From a virus: 43,021 nt of DNA. Location of the stretch: UHGV virus genome UHGV-0126275. The stretch is one strand, 5' to 3'. Below are positions 3,017 to 38,903 of the stretch, piece by piece; position 1 is the first letter of the stretch; each line of letters opens with the position of its first letter. The position numbers and the translations under genes are program-made. The notes below the pieces were generated by a model. It had not been told where the DNA came from, searched no databases, and saw only the letters and a program-made list of their open reading frames with translations.

Positions 3017-3265
3017 TCATGCAGCGTTGCTCACAGGACGATATACACGTTGCTGAACAGGAGGCTTTTTACCCTGGAACTCTGCCGGGCTTGCTGCCTG
3101 ACGTTCATCAAGCCAACGCTCAACTTCGTCACGGTTCCATGCGCAGCGTTTGTCAGTGATATACCAGCGTTTAGGAAATTCACCTGCGCGCTCCATACGG
3201 TCGATAGTGCTCCATGACAGTGGCACCACCGCCAGGAGTTCCTTCTTACCTAATGCACCTTTCAT
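3017..3265 (-). CDS. AlpA/excisionase-like DNA-binding protein (candidate Xis or regulator)
   Basis: 82 aa; 'LLAVVPLSWSTIDRMERAGEFPKRWYITDKRCAWNRDEVERWL' matches the AlpA/Xis winged-helix pattern. Confidence 0.6.
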   Translation of the reverse strand: MKGALGKKELLAVVPLSWSTIDRMERAGEFPKRWYITDKRCAWNRDEVERWLDERQAASPAEFQGKKPPVQQRVYRPVSNAA

Positions 3266-3314
3266 AAATACCTCTCTTGGTTGCAGTGCGGCGCGTGTGG
3301 CGCCGCGGTGGTGG

Positions 3315-4337
3315 TTACTCGAATTCTGGACGCATATCGTTAAGCGTCATCATGAATTTTTGGTGATATTCATCACCGAGCTTTTCAGCCATGGTGTTAA
3401 TCTCATTTTCAGCGCGCTTGAACATCGTTTTTGCATCTTCAGCAGATGGATCCAGGCTATTAAGTATCGCGATGATATATTCTCGAGCTTCTTCTCGTTC
3501 TGAATCTGAAATTGGCGACAGGTGTTGACGCTCATCGTCAACTACGGAATATTCACCAGTGATAACAGCTGCGTTATCTTGGCTAAGTCCAGCTTCAGCG
3601 CGCTCATCCATAACAACAGCCTTCTGCATTTCAATAGAAACAGGAAGATATTTGAATAGTCGGCGAATTACTGTTTTTTTAGCCATCTCATCGAAGTGAT
3701 CAACCCATGGGCCACTGCTACCGGCTTTGCTCAGTGCACGAACTTTCTCAATGTCTGCCCGGCTCATAACTTCAAATTGGACTCCGCCATCTTTCAGTCG
3801 TGCAACGGCGTAAACGTGCGTTAATTCTCCGCGGTCACCTGTTTCGCAAGGTAAATGCTCGAGCGTTTCTTCCAGGCCGTATGAGTAGCTGAATTTGTCG
3901 TTTGTATGTACGGTACGAGCCGAGATACTCAGGATCTGCCCAGAGCGGCGGGCAAGGTCAATCATTCCGCGATAGCCGATAATCAGCTGTGCTTCTGTAG
4001 ATACGGTTTCCCATCTTCCATTTACTTTCTGGCGTTTGTCGAACGGTATCAGGTAAGCGTGTCCAAGAGCTCCGCCTGGTTCAAGACCCAATTGGGCACA
4101 TTGCATAATTGCCCCCAGGAAGCTGGCTTGGTCGCATGATGCAAGTTTTGGAACCTTTCGGATCTCTGTGGTTGCTATGCGCGCCAGACGGTCTGCTGTC
4201 ATGTGCTTTGGAAGTGCCAAAGCCATCTGAGCTTTAATTTTTGGGTCTGCCAGAAGTCCGGCCAGAGTTGTTGGTTTCTCATTATGATGTGCAACTTGGT
4301 TACCGGTAGCCGCTGCCTTAAGTGCATTGATAGACAT
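3315..4337 (-). CDS. recT: RecT-family single-strand annealing recombinase
   Basis: 340-aa translation resembles RecT (central 'AYLIPFDKRQK...' region and acidic C-terminus); lies immediately downstream of a YqaJ-type exonuclease, the canonical pair. Confidence 0.8.
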   Translation of the reverse strand: MSINALKAAATGNQVAHHNEKPTTLAGLLADPKIKAQMALALPKHMTADRLARIATTEIRKVPKLASCDQASFLGAIMQCAQLGLEPGGALGHAYLIPFDKRQKVNGRWETVSTEAQLIIGYRGMIDLARRSGQILSISARTVHTNDKFSYSYGLEETLEHLPCETGDRGELTHVYAVARLKDGGVQFEVMSRADIEKVRALSKAGSSGPWVDHFDEMAKKTVIRRLFKYLPVSIEMQKAVVMDERAEAGLSQDNAAVITGEYSVVDDERQHLSPISDSEREEAREYIIAILNSLDPSAEDAKTMFKRAENEINTMAEKLGDEYHQKFMMTLNDMRPEFE

Positions 4338-5850: not shown

Positions 5851-6435
5851 TTATTGTTTGCTTTTTTCGTTCTGGTTGATGACAAATTCAATGTAACTTT
5901 CGATCTTTGCTTTCTCGGTTTCGGGTAACAATGCGTAGCGTGAGCGGTCATAGTTGATAGTCGCAGGGTCGTGCGGGTGAATCAGTAGTTCATATCCGTG
6001 ACGCCCGAATGCGGATGCAACATTCTCCAGAGTGGAAATGGAAACGCTGACCTCATTGTTTAACAGGCGGCTGATTGTCACCTGGGCGACGCCGGATGCG
6101 CGGTGAAGTTTTCCCTGTGTTGAAAGGTCGCGGCTTTCGCTCATCCAGCGTTCCAGGTTGTGAGCCGCCAGCTGACCTATATCGCTCGGGCCGACAGGCT
6201 GAAAACCCTCCTGAGAAAGCGAACGATCAATATCAAGCCAGTTACGGGGTTTATTGGCGGCAGCTTCAATTTTTCGTGCAACCTGGTCGCCGATAACCTT
6301 CTTGCCAAGAGCCCAGCGGTTTACCAGATTTGCCTGAGTTCCAAGTTTTTCTGCCATCCGCGTCTGAACACCATTGAATTCACGGTCGATCAAGTCGTTG
6401 AGATTTTGCCTGCGGACGTCCTGGATACTTTTCAT
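5851..6435 (-). CDS. Prophage repressor, tandem HTH (XRE-type) domains, no LexA-like peptidase S24 domain
   Basis: 194 aa; HTH-like segments 'VQTRMAEKLGTQANLVNRW' and 'LHRASGVAQVTISRLLNNE'; no Ser/Lys autocleavage domain; divergent from the Cro-like gene. Confidence 0.75.
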   Translation of the reverse strand: MKSIQDVRRQNLNDLIDREFNGVQTRMAEKLGTQANLVNRWALGKKVIGDQVARKIEAAANKPRNWLDIDRSLSQEGFQPVGPSDIGQLAAHNLERWMSESRDLSTQGKLHRASGVAQVTISRLLNNEVSVSISTLENVASAFGRHGYELLIHPHDPATINYDRSRYALLPETEKAKIESYIEFVINQNEKSKQ

Positions 6436-33491: not shown

Positions 33492-34184
33492 TCAGAAGAA
33501 CCCTGCTTTGTCGTTGATATACTCCGCGTGGGTCTGGATATCACGCAGGCATTTGCTCACACCGACGATGTAGCAGAACATGGTGGTCAGCTCCGCCGCC
33601 GCGCCCGATACGTCGTGCCCGTCGTCCTGTAACTGGTTCAGCAGATTCATCAGCAGTGAGTTCTCCGTCAGGCCGAGAACACCAGACGGCGAGTGAATCA
33701 GGCTGCGGTAGCCGGGCTTCAGCGGGGCGCTGTAGGTTTTGTTCTCTATCTTCATTGCCTGCATTACTGCTGACGCCGTGGCGTTGGCTACCTGGTCGGC
33801 AACCATCTTTATGCGTTCTTCCTGCGGGAGCGAGTTTTTAATGTAACTTCCGGTGCGGCGGATCTGAGGAAGAACCTCACCTGTAACCCATTCAAGAAAT
33901 CTGAATGCTCTCGTTCCCTCAGTCATTGCCTCTTTGCAACGCAGAATAAGGATGTAGAGACCTGATTCTGAAACGATGGATAGTTCTTGTATTCCACCAG
34001 GGGTCTGTATTGAATACAGCCCCTTTTTGTTCCAGCCTTTTTTATCAAGTTTTCTCGCTTGTGTAACATCAATATTCAAAGCATTGCACACATCTTTGGT
34101 GACAAACCAAGGTTCTCCGTCAATCATGAACATACGGATCTGGCAGGATGACTCAAAGGAAAAGATGGAAGGTTTGGTATTCAT
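33492..34184 (-). CDS. Bro-N domain protein (antirepressor-like) with C-terminal domain paralogous to the small protein at 35331..35588
   Basis: Start at 'MNTKPSIFSFESSCQIRMFMIDGEPWFVTKDVCNALNI' (Bro-N signature); AAGGTG RBS. Confidence 0.7.
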   Translation of the reverse strand: MNTKPSIFSFESSCQIRMFMIDGEPWFVTKDVCNALNIDVTQARKLDKKGWNKKGLYSIQTPGGIQELSIVSESGLYILILRCKEAMTEGTRAFRFLEWVTGEVLPQIRRTGSYIKNSLPQEERIKMVADQVANATASAVMQAMKIENKTYSAPLKPGYRSLIHSPSGVLGLTENSLLMNLLNQLQDDGHDVSGAAAELTTMFCYIVGVSKCLRDIQTHAEYINDKAGFF

Positions 34185-34451
34185 AGCGATCACCTTTGTA
34201 GTTAGGTTAATCACCACCGCTGAGACCAATCAGATGGTGGTGAACTGTGCAGAGTTGGTCTTACCGGCTACAAAGGAACCCGGCGCACCTTTCGGTGCCC
34301 CCACACAGCCCACCATAGAATAGGTGCGCTTTACACATAAAAAAACCGCTTATGCGGCATATGTGCCTCTGTAGTAATCCGGGAGACCAATCCCGGCACT
34401 GGATTTTGCCAGTGCCCGATTACTATGGCACAAGAGGAGTGCGATGTAAAT

Positions 34452-34559
34452 TTACCGCAAAGGTAATGATAAACGCGAAGAAATATTAAAATCAACCGTA
34501 TTTGGTTGATTGCGTTTAACGCTTGATCACCTGAAAGCAAGATATTACCTTTAAGGTAA
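34452..34559. promoter_or_regulatory. Two TTACC-N5-GGTAA palindromes (34452..34466, 34545..34559) in the divergent region between the Bro-N gene and the zinc-ribbon gene
   Basis: TTACCgcaaaGGTAA and TTACCtttaaGGTAA. Confidence 0.5.
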
Positions 34560-34579
34560 TGTTATTGTGAGGAAAAGCA

Positions 34580-35308
34580 ATGGAAGTTTTCTGGATAGTT
34601 GTTGGTGTGGTTGCGGTGATTATTTACGTTATCAACCAGAACAAGACTAAGATCTCTGATCGTACGGTCGTTAATCATAACAAAACGATAAAGACCGAAG
34701 ATGGGGAGATAACGATTAATCGTACACAGGTGATAGAACACACCTCTACTCAGTTTCAAAAAACTGGAGGTAATGCGCCTAATATTTCCGCACCTCCTGC
34801 TTATGATAGTGCGGTAATCCAGACATATTATAAACAGCAGGAGTTAGCAAAAGAGAGGCAACTGATTCAGCCAAAGCCGTTTACAGCTGAGCTTCCACCT
34901 GGAGTGTCAACGCGTCCGGCATATCATGGAAGATTCCCTGGTGATGACATATCGTCTCAGTCATCTAAAAAAGCACCTCAGGCAGTATCAGAGCCAGCAA
35001 GAATACCTTCTGTATCGCCGCCAAAAGAAGAATCAGCTAACAGAGTTTCAAGTGGCCGCAAGCAGTGTTTGCGATGCAGAATAAACCTTCCATATGACAA
35101 ATTCCGGAAATCGTCAAAAAATCCAGATGGATTGACTAAGTGGTGTGCAAGGTGTCTCGATGGCCCAAAGAATACACGCCATATGAAGTGGTGCCCAATT
35201 TGTAATGTCCGCAGAAAACGGACCAGCTTTTACCCTAATAATCAAAATGCGGACGGCTTAATGGCATGGTGCAAAACGTGCTGGGACGAGCACAAAGCGA
35301 AACGATAG
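34580..35308 (+). CDS. Membrane-anchored protein with tandem C-terminal CxxC-x22-CxxC zinc ribbons
   Basis: N-terminal 'VFWIVVGVVAVIIYVI' TM helix; Pro/Ser-rich linker; 'CLRC...WCARC' and 'CPIC...WCKTC' repeats each containing 'DGL'. Confidence 0.65.
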   Translation: MEVFWIVVGVVAVIIYVINQNKTKISDRTVVNHNKTIKTEDGEITINRTQVIEHTSTQFQKTGGNAPNISAPPAYDSAVIQTYYKQQELAKERQLIQPKPFTAELPPGVSTRPAYHGRFPGDDISSQSSKKAPQAVSEPARIPSVSPPKEESANRVSSGRKQCLRCRINLPYDKFRKSSKNPDGLTKWCARCLDGPKNTRHMKWCPICNVRRKRTSFYPNNQNADGLMAWCKTCWDEHKAKR

Positions 35309-35324
35309 GCCGCTCTTGCGGCCT
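35308..35324. terminator. Hairpin between the convergent zinc-ribbon and antirepressor-like genes
   Basis: GGCCGC-TCTT-GCGGCC with weak T-run. Confidence 0.45.
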
Positions 35325-35330
35325 TTAAAT

Positions 35331-35588
35331 TTACCGGGTTTGTTTTCGTAATTGTTCGGCACAATAGTCGAGATGTGTTTGCAGATCCTGCATAGACATC
35401 TGTGAGCTGGTGACGTAGTTAATCAGTGCAGTCAGTTCGGCAAGTGGGCCATCGACATTAAATCCATCCTTATCGAGATCCCGGAGTAATTTCATCAAGT
35501 GCGATCCCTCCACCAGTGACCTGACGCCTCCCGGCGTGTGAATCCTTTCGGTAAATCCGTCTTCCAGTGGATAGTGATACTGCTGCAT
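35331..35588 (-). CDS. Small antirepressor-like protein (about 85 aa), LexA-box-controlled
   Basis: Start at 'MQQYHYP' (GGAGAAG RBS); homologous to the C-terminal domain of the Bro-N protein; LexA box 22 bp upstream. Confidence 0.6.
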   Translation of the reverse strand: MQQYHYPLEDGFTERIHTPGGVRSLVEGSHLMKLLRDLDKDGFNVDGPLAELTALINYVTSSQMSMQDLQTHLDYCAEQLRKQTR

Positions 35589-35609
35589 CTTATCTTCTCC
35601 ATGCAATAA

Positions 35610-35625
35610 CTGTATGTTTATACAG
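35610..35625. promoter_or_regulatory. LexA (SOS) box CTGT-N8-ACAG
   Basis: aaCTGTatgtttatACAGta; near-consensus with AT-rich spacer, just upstream of the small antirepressor-like gene. Confidence 0.7.
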
Positions 35626-35664
35626 TAACAAATAATTTGTTTGCTATCCAGCACGTTTTGCAAA

Positions 35665-35679
35665 TTACCCGAAAGGTAA
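35665..35679. promoter_or_regulatory. TTACC-N5-GGTAA palindrome upstream of the antirepressor-like gene
   Basis: aTTACCcgaaaGGTAAt. Confidence 0.5.
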
Positions 35680-35783
35680 TATCTATTGGTATTTATAGTC
35701 TTTTTATCCATATATGGTTTTTCAGGTAATAGAATAACCAGATATGCGGCGCAACGGGTGCTGCGACTATCTGGAGATTTAAC

Positions 35784-38700
35784 ATGACGGTCTCAACCGA
35801 AGTTGACCACAACGAATACACCGGTAACGGCGTTACGACATCGTTTCCGTATACTTTTCGAATTTTCAGAAAATCAGACCTGGTTGTTCAGGTGTCTGAT
35901 CTGAACGGAAACGTAACAGAATTGGTCCTGGATACCGGTTATACGGTAACTGGGGCGGGCACTTATAGTGGCGGTTCTGTGGTTCTTCCGTCTCCGCTTG
36001 CTACTGGATGGCGAATTACGATAGATCGTGTGCTTGATGTAGTGCAGGACACAGACCTTCGCAATCAGGGAAAATTTTTCCCCGAAGTGCATGAAGATGC
36101 CTTTGACTACCTGACGATGCTGATCCAGCAATGTTTTGGGTGGTTCAGACGTGCATTGATGAAACCATCTTTGCTTGCAAAATATTACGATGCAAAGCAA
36201 AACAAAATTTCTAACCTTGCAGATCCATCATTTGAGCAGGACGCTGTAAATAATCGCTCAATGCGTAATTATGTCGATGCTGCAATCGCCGGAGTTGTTG
36301 GTGGTTTTGGTTGGTTTATTCAGTATGGTTCTGGGGCTGTGTACCGAACGTTCCAGGATAAAATGCGTGATGCTATTAGCCCCAAAGATTTTGGAGCTGT
36401 TGGTGATGGTATAAATGACGATTCCACTGCAATAAGCGCGTGCCTTGAAGCCTCATCTCCAGGTTATAAAATTGACGGATTAGGGCTTACTTTTAAAGTA
36501 TCAACTCTTCCGGATGTCAGTCGATTTAAAAATGCTCGTTTTTTATTTGAGAGAATACCGGGCCAGCCTCTTTTTTATGCTTCTGAAGATTTTATCCAGG
36601 GAGAGTTATTTAAAATTACAGATACACCGTGGTACAACGCCTGGACGCAGGATAAAACGTTTGTATATGACAATGTCATCTATGCGCCTTTTATGGCTGG
36701 AGACCGCCATGGTGTAAATAACCTCCATGTTGCATGGGTTCGCTCAGGAGATGACGGGAAGACCTGGACAACGCCGGAATGGCTTACAGATTTACATGAA
36801 AACTATCCCACAGTTAACTATCACTGCATGAGTATGGGGGTTGTCAGAAATCGCCTTTTTGCTGTAATTGAGACGCGGACCGTGAGAGGAAATAAACTGC
36901 AGGTTGCAGAGTTGTGGGATCGCCCAATGAGTCGCAGCCTTCGCGTTTATGGTGGTATAACGAAAGCAGCAAATCAGCAAGTCGCTTATATTCGCATTAC
37001 TGATCACGGATTATTTGCTGGTGATTTTGTCAACTTCTCAAACTCTGGTGTTACAGGTGTTACCGGGAATATGACGGTGACTACTGTTATTGATAAAAAT
37101 ACCTTTACAGTTACGACGCAAAATACCCAGGATGTGGATCAGAATAACGAGGGTAGATACTGGAGTTTTGGCACATCATTTCACTCGTCACCATGGAGAA
37201 AAACCAGTCTTGGAACTATTCCTTCTTTTGTTGACGGAAGCACTCCTGTTACTGAGATTCACAGTTTTGCGACGATTAGCGATAACAGTTTTGCTGTTGG
37301 CTACCATAATGGTGATATTGGTCCACGCGAGCTTGGGATACTCTATTTCTCTGATGCTTTCGGTTCTCCTGGTAGCTTTGTTCGCAGACGCATACCTGTA
37401 GAATATGAGGCGAATGCATCTGAGCCATGTGTAAAATATTATGATGGCATTCTGTATCTGACGACCAGGGGGACATTAAGTACTCAACCCGGTAGTTCAT
37501 TGCACAGAAGCTCTGATTTAGGTACATCATGGAATTCTCTTCGCTTCCCAAATAATGTTCATCACTCAAACCTTCCTTTTGCCAAAGTTGGCGATGAGCT
37601 GATTATTTTTGGCAGTGAGCGCGCATTTGGTGAGTGGGAAGGAGGAGAACCTGATAACCGTTATGCAGGAAATTATCCAAGAACATTTATGACCAGAGTT
37701 AACGTCAATGAGTGGAGTCTGGATAATGTAGAGTGGGTTAATGTTACTGATCAGATTTATCAGGGCGGAATAGTTAACTCTGCGGTTGGTGTTGGTTCAG
37801 TTTGTATCAAAGACAACTGGCTGTACTACATTTTCGGTGGGGAAGACTTTCTAAACCCATGGAGCATAGGGGATAACAACAGAAAATATCCTTATGTTCA
37901 CGATGGTCACCCGGCTGATTTGTATTGTTTCAGGGTGAAAATTAAACAGGAAGAATTTGTTTCAAGGGATTTTGTCTACGGAGCCACTCCTAACAGAACG
38001 CTTCCTACTTTTATGTCGACGTCAGGCGTGAGGACGGTTCCTGTACCCGTTGATTTCACAGATGATGTTGCCGTCCAGTCACTGACTGTCCATGCAGGTA
38101 CATCAGGACAAGTTCGCGCGGAAGTCAAACTTGAGGGTAATTACGCCATTATTGCGAAGAAAGTACCGTCTGATGATGTTACCGCTCAGAGATTAATCGT
38201 TAGCGGCGGTGAAACAACGTCTTCAGCAGATGGTGCAATGATAACGTTGCATGGTTCCGGAAGCAGTACTCCACGTCGCGCGGTATATAACGCACTCGAA
38301 CATCTTTTTGAGAACGGAGATGTTAAACCTTATCTTGATAATGTAAATGCTCTTGGTGGTCCGGGAAACAGGTTCTCGACAGTTTATCTTGGCTCCAATC
38401 CTGTGGTTACCAGTGACGGAACATTAAAGACAGAGCCGGTCTCTCCTGACGAAGCATTGCTGGATGCCTGGGGTGACGTCAGGTATATCGCTTATAAATG
38501 GCTGAACGCTGTCGCTATAAAGGGGGAAGAAGGGGCGAGGATACATCATGGTGTAATCGCGCAGCAACTTCGTGATGTTCTTATTTCTCACGGACTCATG
38601 GAAGAAGAAAGCACAACATGCTGCTATGCCTTTCTTTGCTATGACGATTATCCCGCAGTATATGATGACGTCATTACTGGCCAAAGGGAAATGCCGCTGA

Positions 38701-38903
38701 CTGATAATGACGGGAGCATCATTGTTGATGAGGATGATAATCCAGTGATGGTAATAGAAGACATCATTGAGCGCGTTGAAATAACGCCAGCAGGATCTAG
38801 ATGGGGGGTCAGACCTGATCTCTTATTCTATATCGAGGCAGCATGGCAGCGCAGAGAAATGGATAAGATAAAAGAGCGGGTTCAGTCTCTGGAAGAACGT
38901 TAA
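35784..38903 (+). CDS. Tailspike / tail fibre: T7 gp17-like N-terminal adaptor domain, Asp-box (sialidase-like) central region, C-terminal intramolecular chaperone (peptidase S74-like) domain
   Basis: 1039 aa; Asp-box-like 'SGDDGKTW' and 'SSDLGTSW'; 'VVTSDGTLK' (Ser-x4-Lys dyad, Ser codon at about 38412) followed by 'GVIAQQLRDVL', as in endosialidase-type chaperone domains. Confidence 0.75.
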   Translation: MTVSTEVDHNEYTGNGVTTSFPYTFRIFRKSDLVVQVSDLNGNVTELVLDTGYTVTGAGTYSGGSVVLPSPLATGWRITIDRVLDVVQDTDLRNQGKFFPEVHEDAFDYLTMLIQQCFGWFRRALMKPSLLAKYYDAKQNKISNLADPSFEQDAVNNRSMRNYVDAAIAGVVGGFGWFIQYGSGAVYRTFQDKMRDAISPKDFGAVGDGINDDSTAISACLEASSPGYKIDGLGLTFKVSTLPDVSRFKNARFLFERIPGQPLFYASEDFIQGELFKITDTPWYNAWTQDKTFVYDNVIYAPFMAGDRHGVNNLHVAWVRSGDDGKTWTTPEWLTDLHENYPTVNYHCMSMGVVRNRLFAVIETRTVRGNKLQVAELWDRPMSRSLRVYGGITKAANQQVAYIRITDHGLFAGDFVNFSNSGVTGVTGNMTVTTVIDKNTFTVTTQNTQDVDQNNEGRYWSFGTSFHSSPWRKTSLGTIPSFVDGSTPVTEIHSFATISDNSFAVGYHNGDIGPRELGILYFSDAFGSPGSFVRRRIPVEYEANASEPCVKYYDGILYLTTRGTLSTQPGSSLHRSSDLGTSWNSLRFPNNVHHSNLPFAKVGDELIIFGSERAFGEWEGGEPDNRYAGNYPRTFMTRVNVNEWSLDNVEWVNVTDQIYQGGIVNSAVGVGSVCIKDNWLYYIFGGEDFLNPWSIGDNNRKYPYVHDGHPADLYCFRVKIKQEEFVSRDFVYGATPNRTLPTFMSTSGVRTVPVPVDFTDDVAVQSLTVHAGTSGQVRAEVKLEGNYAIIAKKVPSDDVTAQRLIVSGGETTSSADGAMITLHGSGSSTPRRAVYNALEHLFENGDVKPYLDNVNALGGPGNRFSTVYLGSNPVVTSDGTLKTEPVSPDEALLDAWGDVRYIAYKWLNAVAIKGEEGARIHHGVIAQQLRDVLISHGLMEEESTTCCYAFLCYDDYPAVYDDVITGQREMPLTDNDGSIIVDEDDNPVMVIEDIIERVEITPAGSRWGVRPDLLFYIEAAWQRREMDKIKERVQSLEER

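Follow-up and report, generated by a model that had tools for sequence, protein, structure and literature searches.

For Salmonella phage SPC32H, an antirepressor–repressor system, Ant–Rep, has reportedly been described by Kim and Ryu (2013, J Virol) and Kim et al. (2016, PNAS), and in the former work the LexA site is said to overlap the ant promoter. The locus discussed here lies in the virus genome UHGV-0126275 (43,021 nucleotides; this whole stretch of DNA is referred to below as the window) and carries an ant gene of this kind together with a second gene, in which an Ant-like domain is fused to a Bro-N domain. In PDB entry 5D50, Ant of SPC32H is crystallized with Rep, and entry 5D4Z is the C-terminal fragment of Rep. 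According to papers citing this work, Ant is made after the self-cleavage of LexA and inhibits the repressor (PMC7380047), with the Ant tetramer binding two Rep dimers via the Rep C-terminal domain, which is the tetramerization domain of Rep, and with the binding of Ant breaking the Rep tetramer (PMC9638917; PMC9986798).

The described systems closest to the second gene are those in which an antirepressor is controlled by RNA. In the immI operon of P1/P7, a C4 RNA controls the antirepressor Ant (PMC8201110). In Gifsy-1, short IsrK RNA acting in trans switches on the translation of the downstream antirepressor-like AnrP, the expression of which induces the prophage (PMC4825925), and in the APSE phages the a' and b' regions of C4 match the leader of the adjacent Bro-N gene, as noted in a preprint (bioRxiv 10.1101/2020.03.17.996009). 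Taken singly, each circuit of the window is already known, the one as SPC32H Ant/LexA and the other as P1 immI, Gifsy-1 IsrK and APSE C4-Bro-N, while the sharing of the Ant domain between both circuits appears to be undescribed. A term search of the APSE paper and of the paper on E. coli phage vB_EcoP_ZX5 (ZX5, see below) found no link of the C-terminal domain to SPC32H Ant and no mention of a second, LexA-controlled copy. In the accessible literature, which does not include Kim and Ryu (2013), there was likewise no report that the C-terminus of a Bro-N, AntA, ORF6N or P22_AR_N antirepressor is the SPC32H Ant domain, that one phage wires the same domain to two or three controls, or that C4 diversifies with Rep and the domain held constant.

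In the window, the two Ant-family genes stand on the minus strand with one plus-strand gene between them, the free-standing ant behind a LexA box and the fusion directly behind an isrK-like RNA and a C4 RNA encoded on its own strand. The model that we favor, and consider fairly probable, is that the two are paralogous antirepressors of one Rep, one of them triggered by the SOS response and the other by an RNA switch. The genes concerned are the following.

33492..34184, minus strand: Bro-N::Ant-like fusion gene, 230 amino acids (aa), start ATG at 34184, Shine-Dalgarno sequence AAGGTGA
33867..34139, minus strand: Bro-N domain of the fusion, aa 16-106 (PF02498, 51.4 bits with a cutoff of 25.6, E=1.8e-13)
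33510..33740, minus strand: Ant-like C-terminal domain of the fusion, aa 149-225, paralog of the free ant (5D50_E, E=1.6e-13, chain residues 3-79)
35331..35588, minus strand: ant, free-standing antirepressor, 85 aa, ortholog of SPC32H Ant, Shine-Dalgarno sequence GGAGAAG (phmmer, 5D50_E, E=4.1e-47)
35608..35627, minus strand: near-consensus LexA (SOS) box TACTGTATAAACATACAGTT, ending 19 nucleotides (nt) before the ant ATG
5851..6435, minus strand: rep, homolog of the SPC32H repressor (5D50_A, E=3.5e-42; C-terminal fragment 5D4Z_A, E=3.6e-20)

An earlier reading of this DNA, made from its letters without database searches (the sequence-only reading), had claimed that the Bro-N protein and the small protein have a C-terminal domain in common, and this claim holds. 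Both of the peptides quoted there are present in the translations of the minus-strand open reading frames (ORFs) 33492-34229 and 35331-35711, and BLASTP aligns the C-terminus of the fusion with the small protein without a gap (31/74 identities, 42%; 57% positives; E=8e-19). The check proposed with the claim, a pairwise alignment and a profile search, gave a significant result beyond this alignment, as both proteins match phrog_450 (fusion 4.8e-37, free protein 1.1e-47) and phrog_15539, neither of which has an assigned function, and both match 5D50_E, named "Anti-repressor protein" in the PDB. A six-frame tblastn search of the whole window returned just two copies (reciprocal E=8e-17 and 1.8e-13), with the next-best match at an E of at least 0.04, and a chance similarity of the two domains was rejected on the strength of this search and of the BLASTP alignment. 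The free type and the fused type of the domain are 37-42% identical, and 18 alignment columns are invariant over both. The homology of the fused domain to Ant is drawn mainly from sequence. Pfam had no match for the C-terminal third of the fusion, and an AlphaFold2 model of the full-length protein, with a predicted local distance difference test score (pLDDT) of 51, was not used. Against the P22_AR_N profile the fusion scored below the cutoff (17.6 vs 30.7 bits).

The coordinates given by the sequence-only reading were also right, with the Bro-N ORF ending at 33492 and the small protein of 85 aa starting with the ATG at 35588. The longer listed ORFs, 33492-34229 and 35331-35711, were considered as genes and rejected in favor of the starts at ATG 34184 and ATG 35588, the latter of which is supported by homologs starting there. 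The upstream extension of the first overlaps the 3' end of the C4 RNA and its a2 target (see below), and that of the second runs through the LexA box. As for the search for relatives, 27 short proteins, none of them a full-length fusion, were all that a word-indexed search with the C-terminal domain brought up; the fusions came to light in an exhaustive profile search and with the full-length protein as the query.

The free Ant has the length of SPC32H Ant, to which it is 88% identical, and a comparison of the two genes gives a ratio of nonsynonymous to synonymous substitution rates (dN/dS) of 0.05 at a dS of ~1.7. As in SPC32H, ant is divergent from the adjacent tailspike gene; the Bro-N fusion, with 230 aa and several domains, falls outside the SPC32H type of Ant, a stand-alone protein of ~86 aa with the tailspike-divergent position. 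The LexA box aligns with the SPC32H box TACTGTATGTTTATACAGT and has its CTGT-N8-ACAG core at 35610-35625. This core occurs three times in the whole window (15629, 20171, 35610), and no LexA box was found near the Bro-N gene. In a set of 80 related IMG/VR loci, for which the sole criterion of inclusion was a free ant at least 99% identical to that of the window, the box lies upstream of ant at the same distance in 77. The description of the small protein as LexA-controlled in the sequence-only reading is thereby supported at the sequence level. The likeness to SPC32H further includes a Rep homolog, and the differences are that this Rep is only 44% identical to that of SPC32H (47% in the C-terminal region) and that SPC32H has no second copy of the domain, no Bro-N fusion and no isrK/C4 cassette. 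The window Rep is 99-100% identical to the Rep of E. coli Uetakeviruses. In a collection of 50,697 phage records, the Ant-family domain is present in 32, all of which are among the 37 with an SPC32H-type Rep.

Upstream of the fusion, the same strand encodes the elements of the RNA cassette, which are listed here.

34422..34450, minus strand: promoter-like site, TTTACA, 17-nt spacer, CATAGT, with TG upstream (consensus scan)
34339..34415, minus strand: isrK-like RNA (Rfam RF01394, 74.7 bits with a gathering score of 50)
34384-34390, minus strand: a1, UUGGUCU, isrK hairpin loop, complement of a'
34366-34374, minus strand: b1, CUACAGAGG, within the isrK RNA, pairs with b' with one G-U wobble
34345-34358, minus strand: intrinsic terminator with U run, 3' end of the isrK RNA (terminator scan)
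34233..34320, minus strand: C4 antisense RNA (Rfam RF01695, 78.6 bits with a gathering score of 45, E=4.5e-15)
34268-34276, minus strand: b' of C4, CCUUUGUAG, hairpin loop, C4 nt 45-53
34255-34261, minus strand: a' of C4, AGACCAA, C4 nt 60-66
34193..34229, minus strand: C4 target sites in the Bro-N leader (a2 and b2)
34223-34229, minus strand: a2, UUGGUCU, exact complement of C4 nt 60-66 (7 nt)
34193-34201, minus strand: b2, CUACAAAGG, exact complement of C4 nt 45-53 (9 nt)

Between the end of b2, which overlaps the Shine-Dalgarno sequence, and the fusion ATG at 34184 there are 8 nt. The promoter-like sequence is conserved in all of the related cassettes that were compared; the Rfam c4-a1b1 motif scored below its gathering score (39.9 vs 46.7 bits). 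The sequence-only reading is supported in its proposal of two different signals and had missed both this cassette, the likely second of them, and the solved family of the small protein; its second signal was left unnamed because the RNA cassette had not been seen. Of its two proposals, that of two antirepressors responding to different signals is favored by the LexA box on the one side and the isrK/C4 cassette on the other, by the absence of a LexA box near the Bro-N gene and by the phenotype of the ZX5 homolog described below.

The cassette resembles P1/P7 immI in having an RNA of the C4 family with a' and b', a1 and b1 upstream, a2 and b2 downstream and b2 placed over the ribosome-binding site, and also in that the controlled gene is an antirepressor and that several C4 specificities go with one repressor type. 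It differs from P1 in that the window has no icd-like upstream ORF, so that C4 would target the antirepressor's own Shine-Dalgarno sequence, and in that the repressor is of the SPC32H type and not C1. An icd-like arrangement was seen only in the ORF6N variant of the locus (L004, introduced below), in which b2 of C4 precedes a 168-aa ORF (3073-3579), the end of which overlaps the start of the ORF6N::Ant gene (3557-4291), resembling the coupled icd-ant of P1. The isrK-orf45(STnc1160)-anrP locus of Gifsy-1 (Hershko-Shalev et al. 2016) is similar in having an isrK-family RNA and a terminator upstream of an antirepressor-like gene. At the protein level, Gifsy-1 AnrP (STM2616) has no detectable similarity to the window fusion in BLASTP (E=3.1), nor to the small ORF by the dinI homolog, which was taken by guess to be GfoA, an uncertain assignment; a design in Gifsy-1 with a domain common to both antirepressors was considered and is not supported by these comparisons, uncertain as the GfoA guess is.

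Within the cassette, the C4 closing stem has as its 3' strand UCACCACC (C4 nt 78-85, 34236-34243), which is complementary to the leader segment GGUGGUGA (34211-34218), which lies between a2 and b2, and the core CACCACC/GGUGGUG of both segments is invariant in all classes of the cassette. By this complementarity, a read-through transcript that is not processed could fold into an alternative cis helix, comparable to the alternative structures of Gifsy-1 isrK. The listed ORFs 34331-34540 (minus strand), 34352-34489 (plus strand) and 33976-34323 (plus strand) overlie the isrK and C4 RNA genes, and in ZX5 a coding sequence named "ash family protein" (L093 1253-1366) has been placed on the C4 RNA, which is probably a misannotation.

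The RNA cassette recurs in related phages. An Rfam scan of phiV10, TL-2011b, Enterobacter phage Tyrion, a Klebsiella phage, ZX5 and representative IMG/VR loci placed isrK and C4 immediately upstream of the C4-linked fused gene in every record and locus scanned; in SPC32H, which has no fusion, the scan found neither. In the set of 80 loci, the fused domain is present downstream in ~72 and absent from ~8, and each of the ~72 whose sequence reaches that far has an isrK/C4 BLAST match in front of it. The sites fall into seven (a,b) specificity classes, in which a', a1 and a2, and likewise b', b1 and b2, change together: with a' variants AGACCAA, ACGCCAA and GUGCAAA, and b' variants CCUUUGUAG, CCUUUUAG, CCACUUAG and CCUACUAG, a1 and a2 are complementary to a', and b1 and b2 to b', in every class. 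Since the a and b sites failed to line up between classes in a MAFFT alignment of the cassettes, a direct matrix of cognate and non-cognate complementarity was used instead. In it, the complementarity of cognate pairs amounts to 7 and 7-9 nt, and in non-cognate pairs one of the two sites, or both, is lost. A three-way compensatory change of the a and b elements is hard to explain without function.

P0087, which is 99% identical to the fusion, represents 355 member sequences, and the fused domain is under purifying selection (dN/dS 0.08-0.24). In E. coli Uetakeviruses, the fused domain is 93-100% identical with Rep 99-100% identical, and it occurs with N-terminal partners of several kinds, namely four Bro-N subtypes (57-68% identical), AntA (in P0028 and in L014), ORF6N (in L004) and P22_AR_N. 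The window Bro-N fusion and the P22_AR_N fusion of TL-2011b differ by dS=0.34 and dN=0.033. More distant members are fused to Phage_pRha, and the whole family is small, with 61 representatives at E<=1e-3 among 1.84 billion proteins. By these comparisons, the C-terminal domain behaves as a module that would be matched to the repressor. As to function, ZX5, the Rep of which is 99.5% identical, has isrK, C4 and then ORF4, a 231-aa protein of the same Bro-N::Ant-like architecture that is annotated "anti-repressor". When ORF4 was overexpressed in infection, the titre of lysogens fell from 1e9 to 1e6 and repressor mRNA by 75% (PMC9782041). The term "SPC32H" is absent from that paper, and its retrieved passages mention neither the small ant gene nor the RNAs.

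In the proposed model, Rep (5851-6435) would, by analogy with SPC32H, be inactivated by an antirepressor and not by self-cleavage, and it is the presumed common target of both antirepressors. LexA bound at 35608-35627 would keep ant off until DNA damage removes LexA and Ant is made, upon which Ant would bind the C-terminal tetramerization domain of Rep, the Rep tetramer being taken apart as in SPC32H. The fusion would be the last gene of an RNA cassette of the P1-immI/Gifsy-1-isrK type, in which a promoter near 34422-34450, assumed to be constitutive as in P1, would give rise to a short IsrK-like RNA with the decoy sites a1 and b1, and in which read-through transcripts would yield the C4 RNA. 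The a' and b' regions of C4 would then pair with a2 and b2 of the fusion leader and, because b2 covers the Shine-Dalgarno sequence, translation of the fusion would be blocked in the lysogen. The fusion would be made when IsrK titrates C4, or when the phage enters a cell without the cognate C4, and its Ant-like domain would in turn inactivate Rep; that this domain binds the window Rep is what we infer from its kinship with Ant. What the sequences show directly are the homologies, the RNA elements with their complementarity and covariation, the exchange of domains and the purifying selection.

It has to be said that several points weigh against this model. The paralogs are only 37-42% identical, and their partners could differ. 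Compared with SPC32H, Ant (88%) is far more conserved than Rep (44%), and the conservation of Ant does not simply track that of its presumed target. The putative isrK-like promoter at 34422-34450 is a consensus match only, and in the ZX5 paper ORF4 was overexpressed from a glutathione S-transferase (GST)-tag vector, with indirect read-outs (PMC9782041). The divergence of the paralogs also favors an alternative in which the fused domain is directed at a host protein or, as crosstalk in trans or anti-immunity, at the repressor that a heteroimmune resident prophage makes, the paralogy reflecting a shared fold and not a shared target. The phiV10 copy of the fusion is annotated "putative anti-immunity protein", and trans-acting antirepressors are known in Salmonella prophages (PMC7380047). 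The identity of the fused domain follows phage lineage (79% in Tyrion, 52% in Klebsiella), which is uninformative on what the target is. This alternative appears unlikely, however, given that the Ant-family domain is confined to phages with an SPC32H-type Rep (32/32 records), that in phages with a 99-100% identical Rep the identity of the fused domain remains at 93-100% despite the exchange of N-terminal domains and RNA classes, and that ORF4 acted on the lysis-lysogeny balance of ZX5 itself (PMC9782041).

The second proposal of the sequence-only reading, in which the paralogs act on each other, would have them form mixed oligomers in which one tunes, poisons or recruits the other. It is compatible with two antirepressors of one Rep and does not exclude them. 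Ant is described as a tetramer (PMC9638917), the 18 invariant columns run through both domain types, and the halves can be combined in one chain, as seen in the chimeras (see below) and in a Klebsiella free Ant with the motif DGHDVSGAAAEL of the fused type. On the other hand, SPC32H and its Salmonella relatives work with free Ant alone and no fusion, the fusions have a complete antirepressor-type cassette of their own, and the extent of divergence between the types also speaks against mixing, which makes such mutual action improbable in our estimation. In phiV10 (L001 4012-4691) and in O157 typing phages 9 and 10, the Bro-N::Ant gene is frameshifted, its annotated parts being a Bro-N protein of 194 aa and an ORF of 29 aa, and these phages probably have no functional fused antirepressor. 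Together with the absence of the fusion from ~8/80 loci, this would suit a decaying duplicate with no current function, the similarity being a historical trace. That explanation is largely refuted and has very little chance of being right in view of the dN/dS of 0.08-0.24, the intact gene in most loci and in hundreds of genomes, the covariation of the regulatory RNA sites and the phenotype of the ZX5 homolog. The reading that thus fares best is that of two antirepressors, one SOS-triggered and one RNA-switch-triggered, of a single Rep.

On that reading, paralogous modules would, in this natural system, connect two triggers, or three in TL-2011b, to one repressor, and with its built-in RNA specificity variants the locus would be a convenient model for the combination of SOS-dependent with SOS-independent induction in temperate phages and for heteroimmunity of the immI type in phages other than P1. 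Hundreds of enterobacterial prophage proteins named "BRO-N domain-containing" or "anti-repressor" have an unnamed C-terminus for which there is no Pfam or NCBIfam model, and the link to a crystallized antirepressor–repressor complex offers a concrete, testable mechanism for them and suggests which end recognizes the repressor. A wider and more tentative idea, which we regard as possible though doubtful, is that the SPC32H-Ant fold is a portable repressor-targeting "warhead" used in at least three circuits (LexA, isrK/C4, Arc/sar) and with at least four kinds of N-terminal domain, the C4 classes being a second immunity determinant. If this were true, the C4 elements would have split into at least seven specificities with Rep and the warhead constant. 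A phage that superinfects a lysogen of another, non-cognate C4 class would then make its fusion there, remove the resident Rep and overcome immunity, as with P1/P7, and this would drive an arms race between the RNAs; tetramers in which free and fused forms are mixed might further integrate the SOS and RNA signals.

The third of these circuits is that of TL-2011b, which has a third domain-bearing gene (L002 5443-6387, minus strand) encoding a 314-aa P22_AR_N protein, the last ~80 residues of which are nearly identical to the fused domain of the window. The gene stands beside an Arc-like repressor gene and a sar RNA (L002 6389-6456), an immI module of the P22 type. It is through this P22_AR_N, Arc-like and sar set with its Ant-like C-terminus that the group resembles P22 immI (P22_AR_N; arc/mnt/sar), and the window differs in having no P22_AR_N gene.

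Remodeled copies of the domain were also encountered. One locus (L094 2501-2755) encodes an 84-aa chimeric Ant with a free-type N-terminal half and a fused-type C-terminal half, which stands behind the LexA-like box ATGTATATATATACAG and next to a tail-fibre gene, with isrK, C4 and the N-terminal domain missing; it likely arose from a deletion by recombination between the two direct paralogous copies. Free-standing 95-aa fused-type "anti-repressor" proteins (P0013) were considered as a third regulatory class and rejected as 5'-truncated remnants. In a Klebsiella locus (L086 2900-3288), such a 95-aa ORF has an in-frame remnant of the linker upstream, up to an AlpA-like gene, which itself is part of an island next to a tRNA and to a HicA-toxin gene that has its partner gene alongside.

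As to its setting, the window is an E. coli prophage of the epsilon15/phiV10/TL-2011b-like (Uetakevirus) group, and the locus is present in 546 of 5426 complete E. coli genomes (~1 in 10). PADLOC and NCBIfam gave no match for any gene of the locus. An insertion on the opposite strand, a gene for a 242-aa protein (34580-35308, plus strand), separates ant from the isrK cassette. The protein combines a hydrophobic helix at the N-terminus with two zinc-ribbon-like CxxC...CxxC repeats at the C-terminus, belongs to phrog_6762 and has weak matches to endonuclease VII, Lar and Stc1; the gene, for which PADLOC had no match, is found in ~28/80 of the related loci and looks like a moron of unknown function. 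On its other side, ant adjoins the tailspike gene (35784-38903, plus strand, 1039 aa). At this position, other phages of the same group have quite different tailspikes (GH28, SGNH hydrolase, tail fibre), while in near-identical E. coli prophages the tailspike is annotated as an endosialidase catalytic beta-propeller protein, which suggests hosts with a K1 capsule, and the tailspike of the window is probably the K1-capsule-specific variant.

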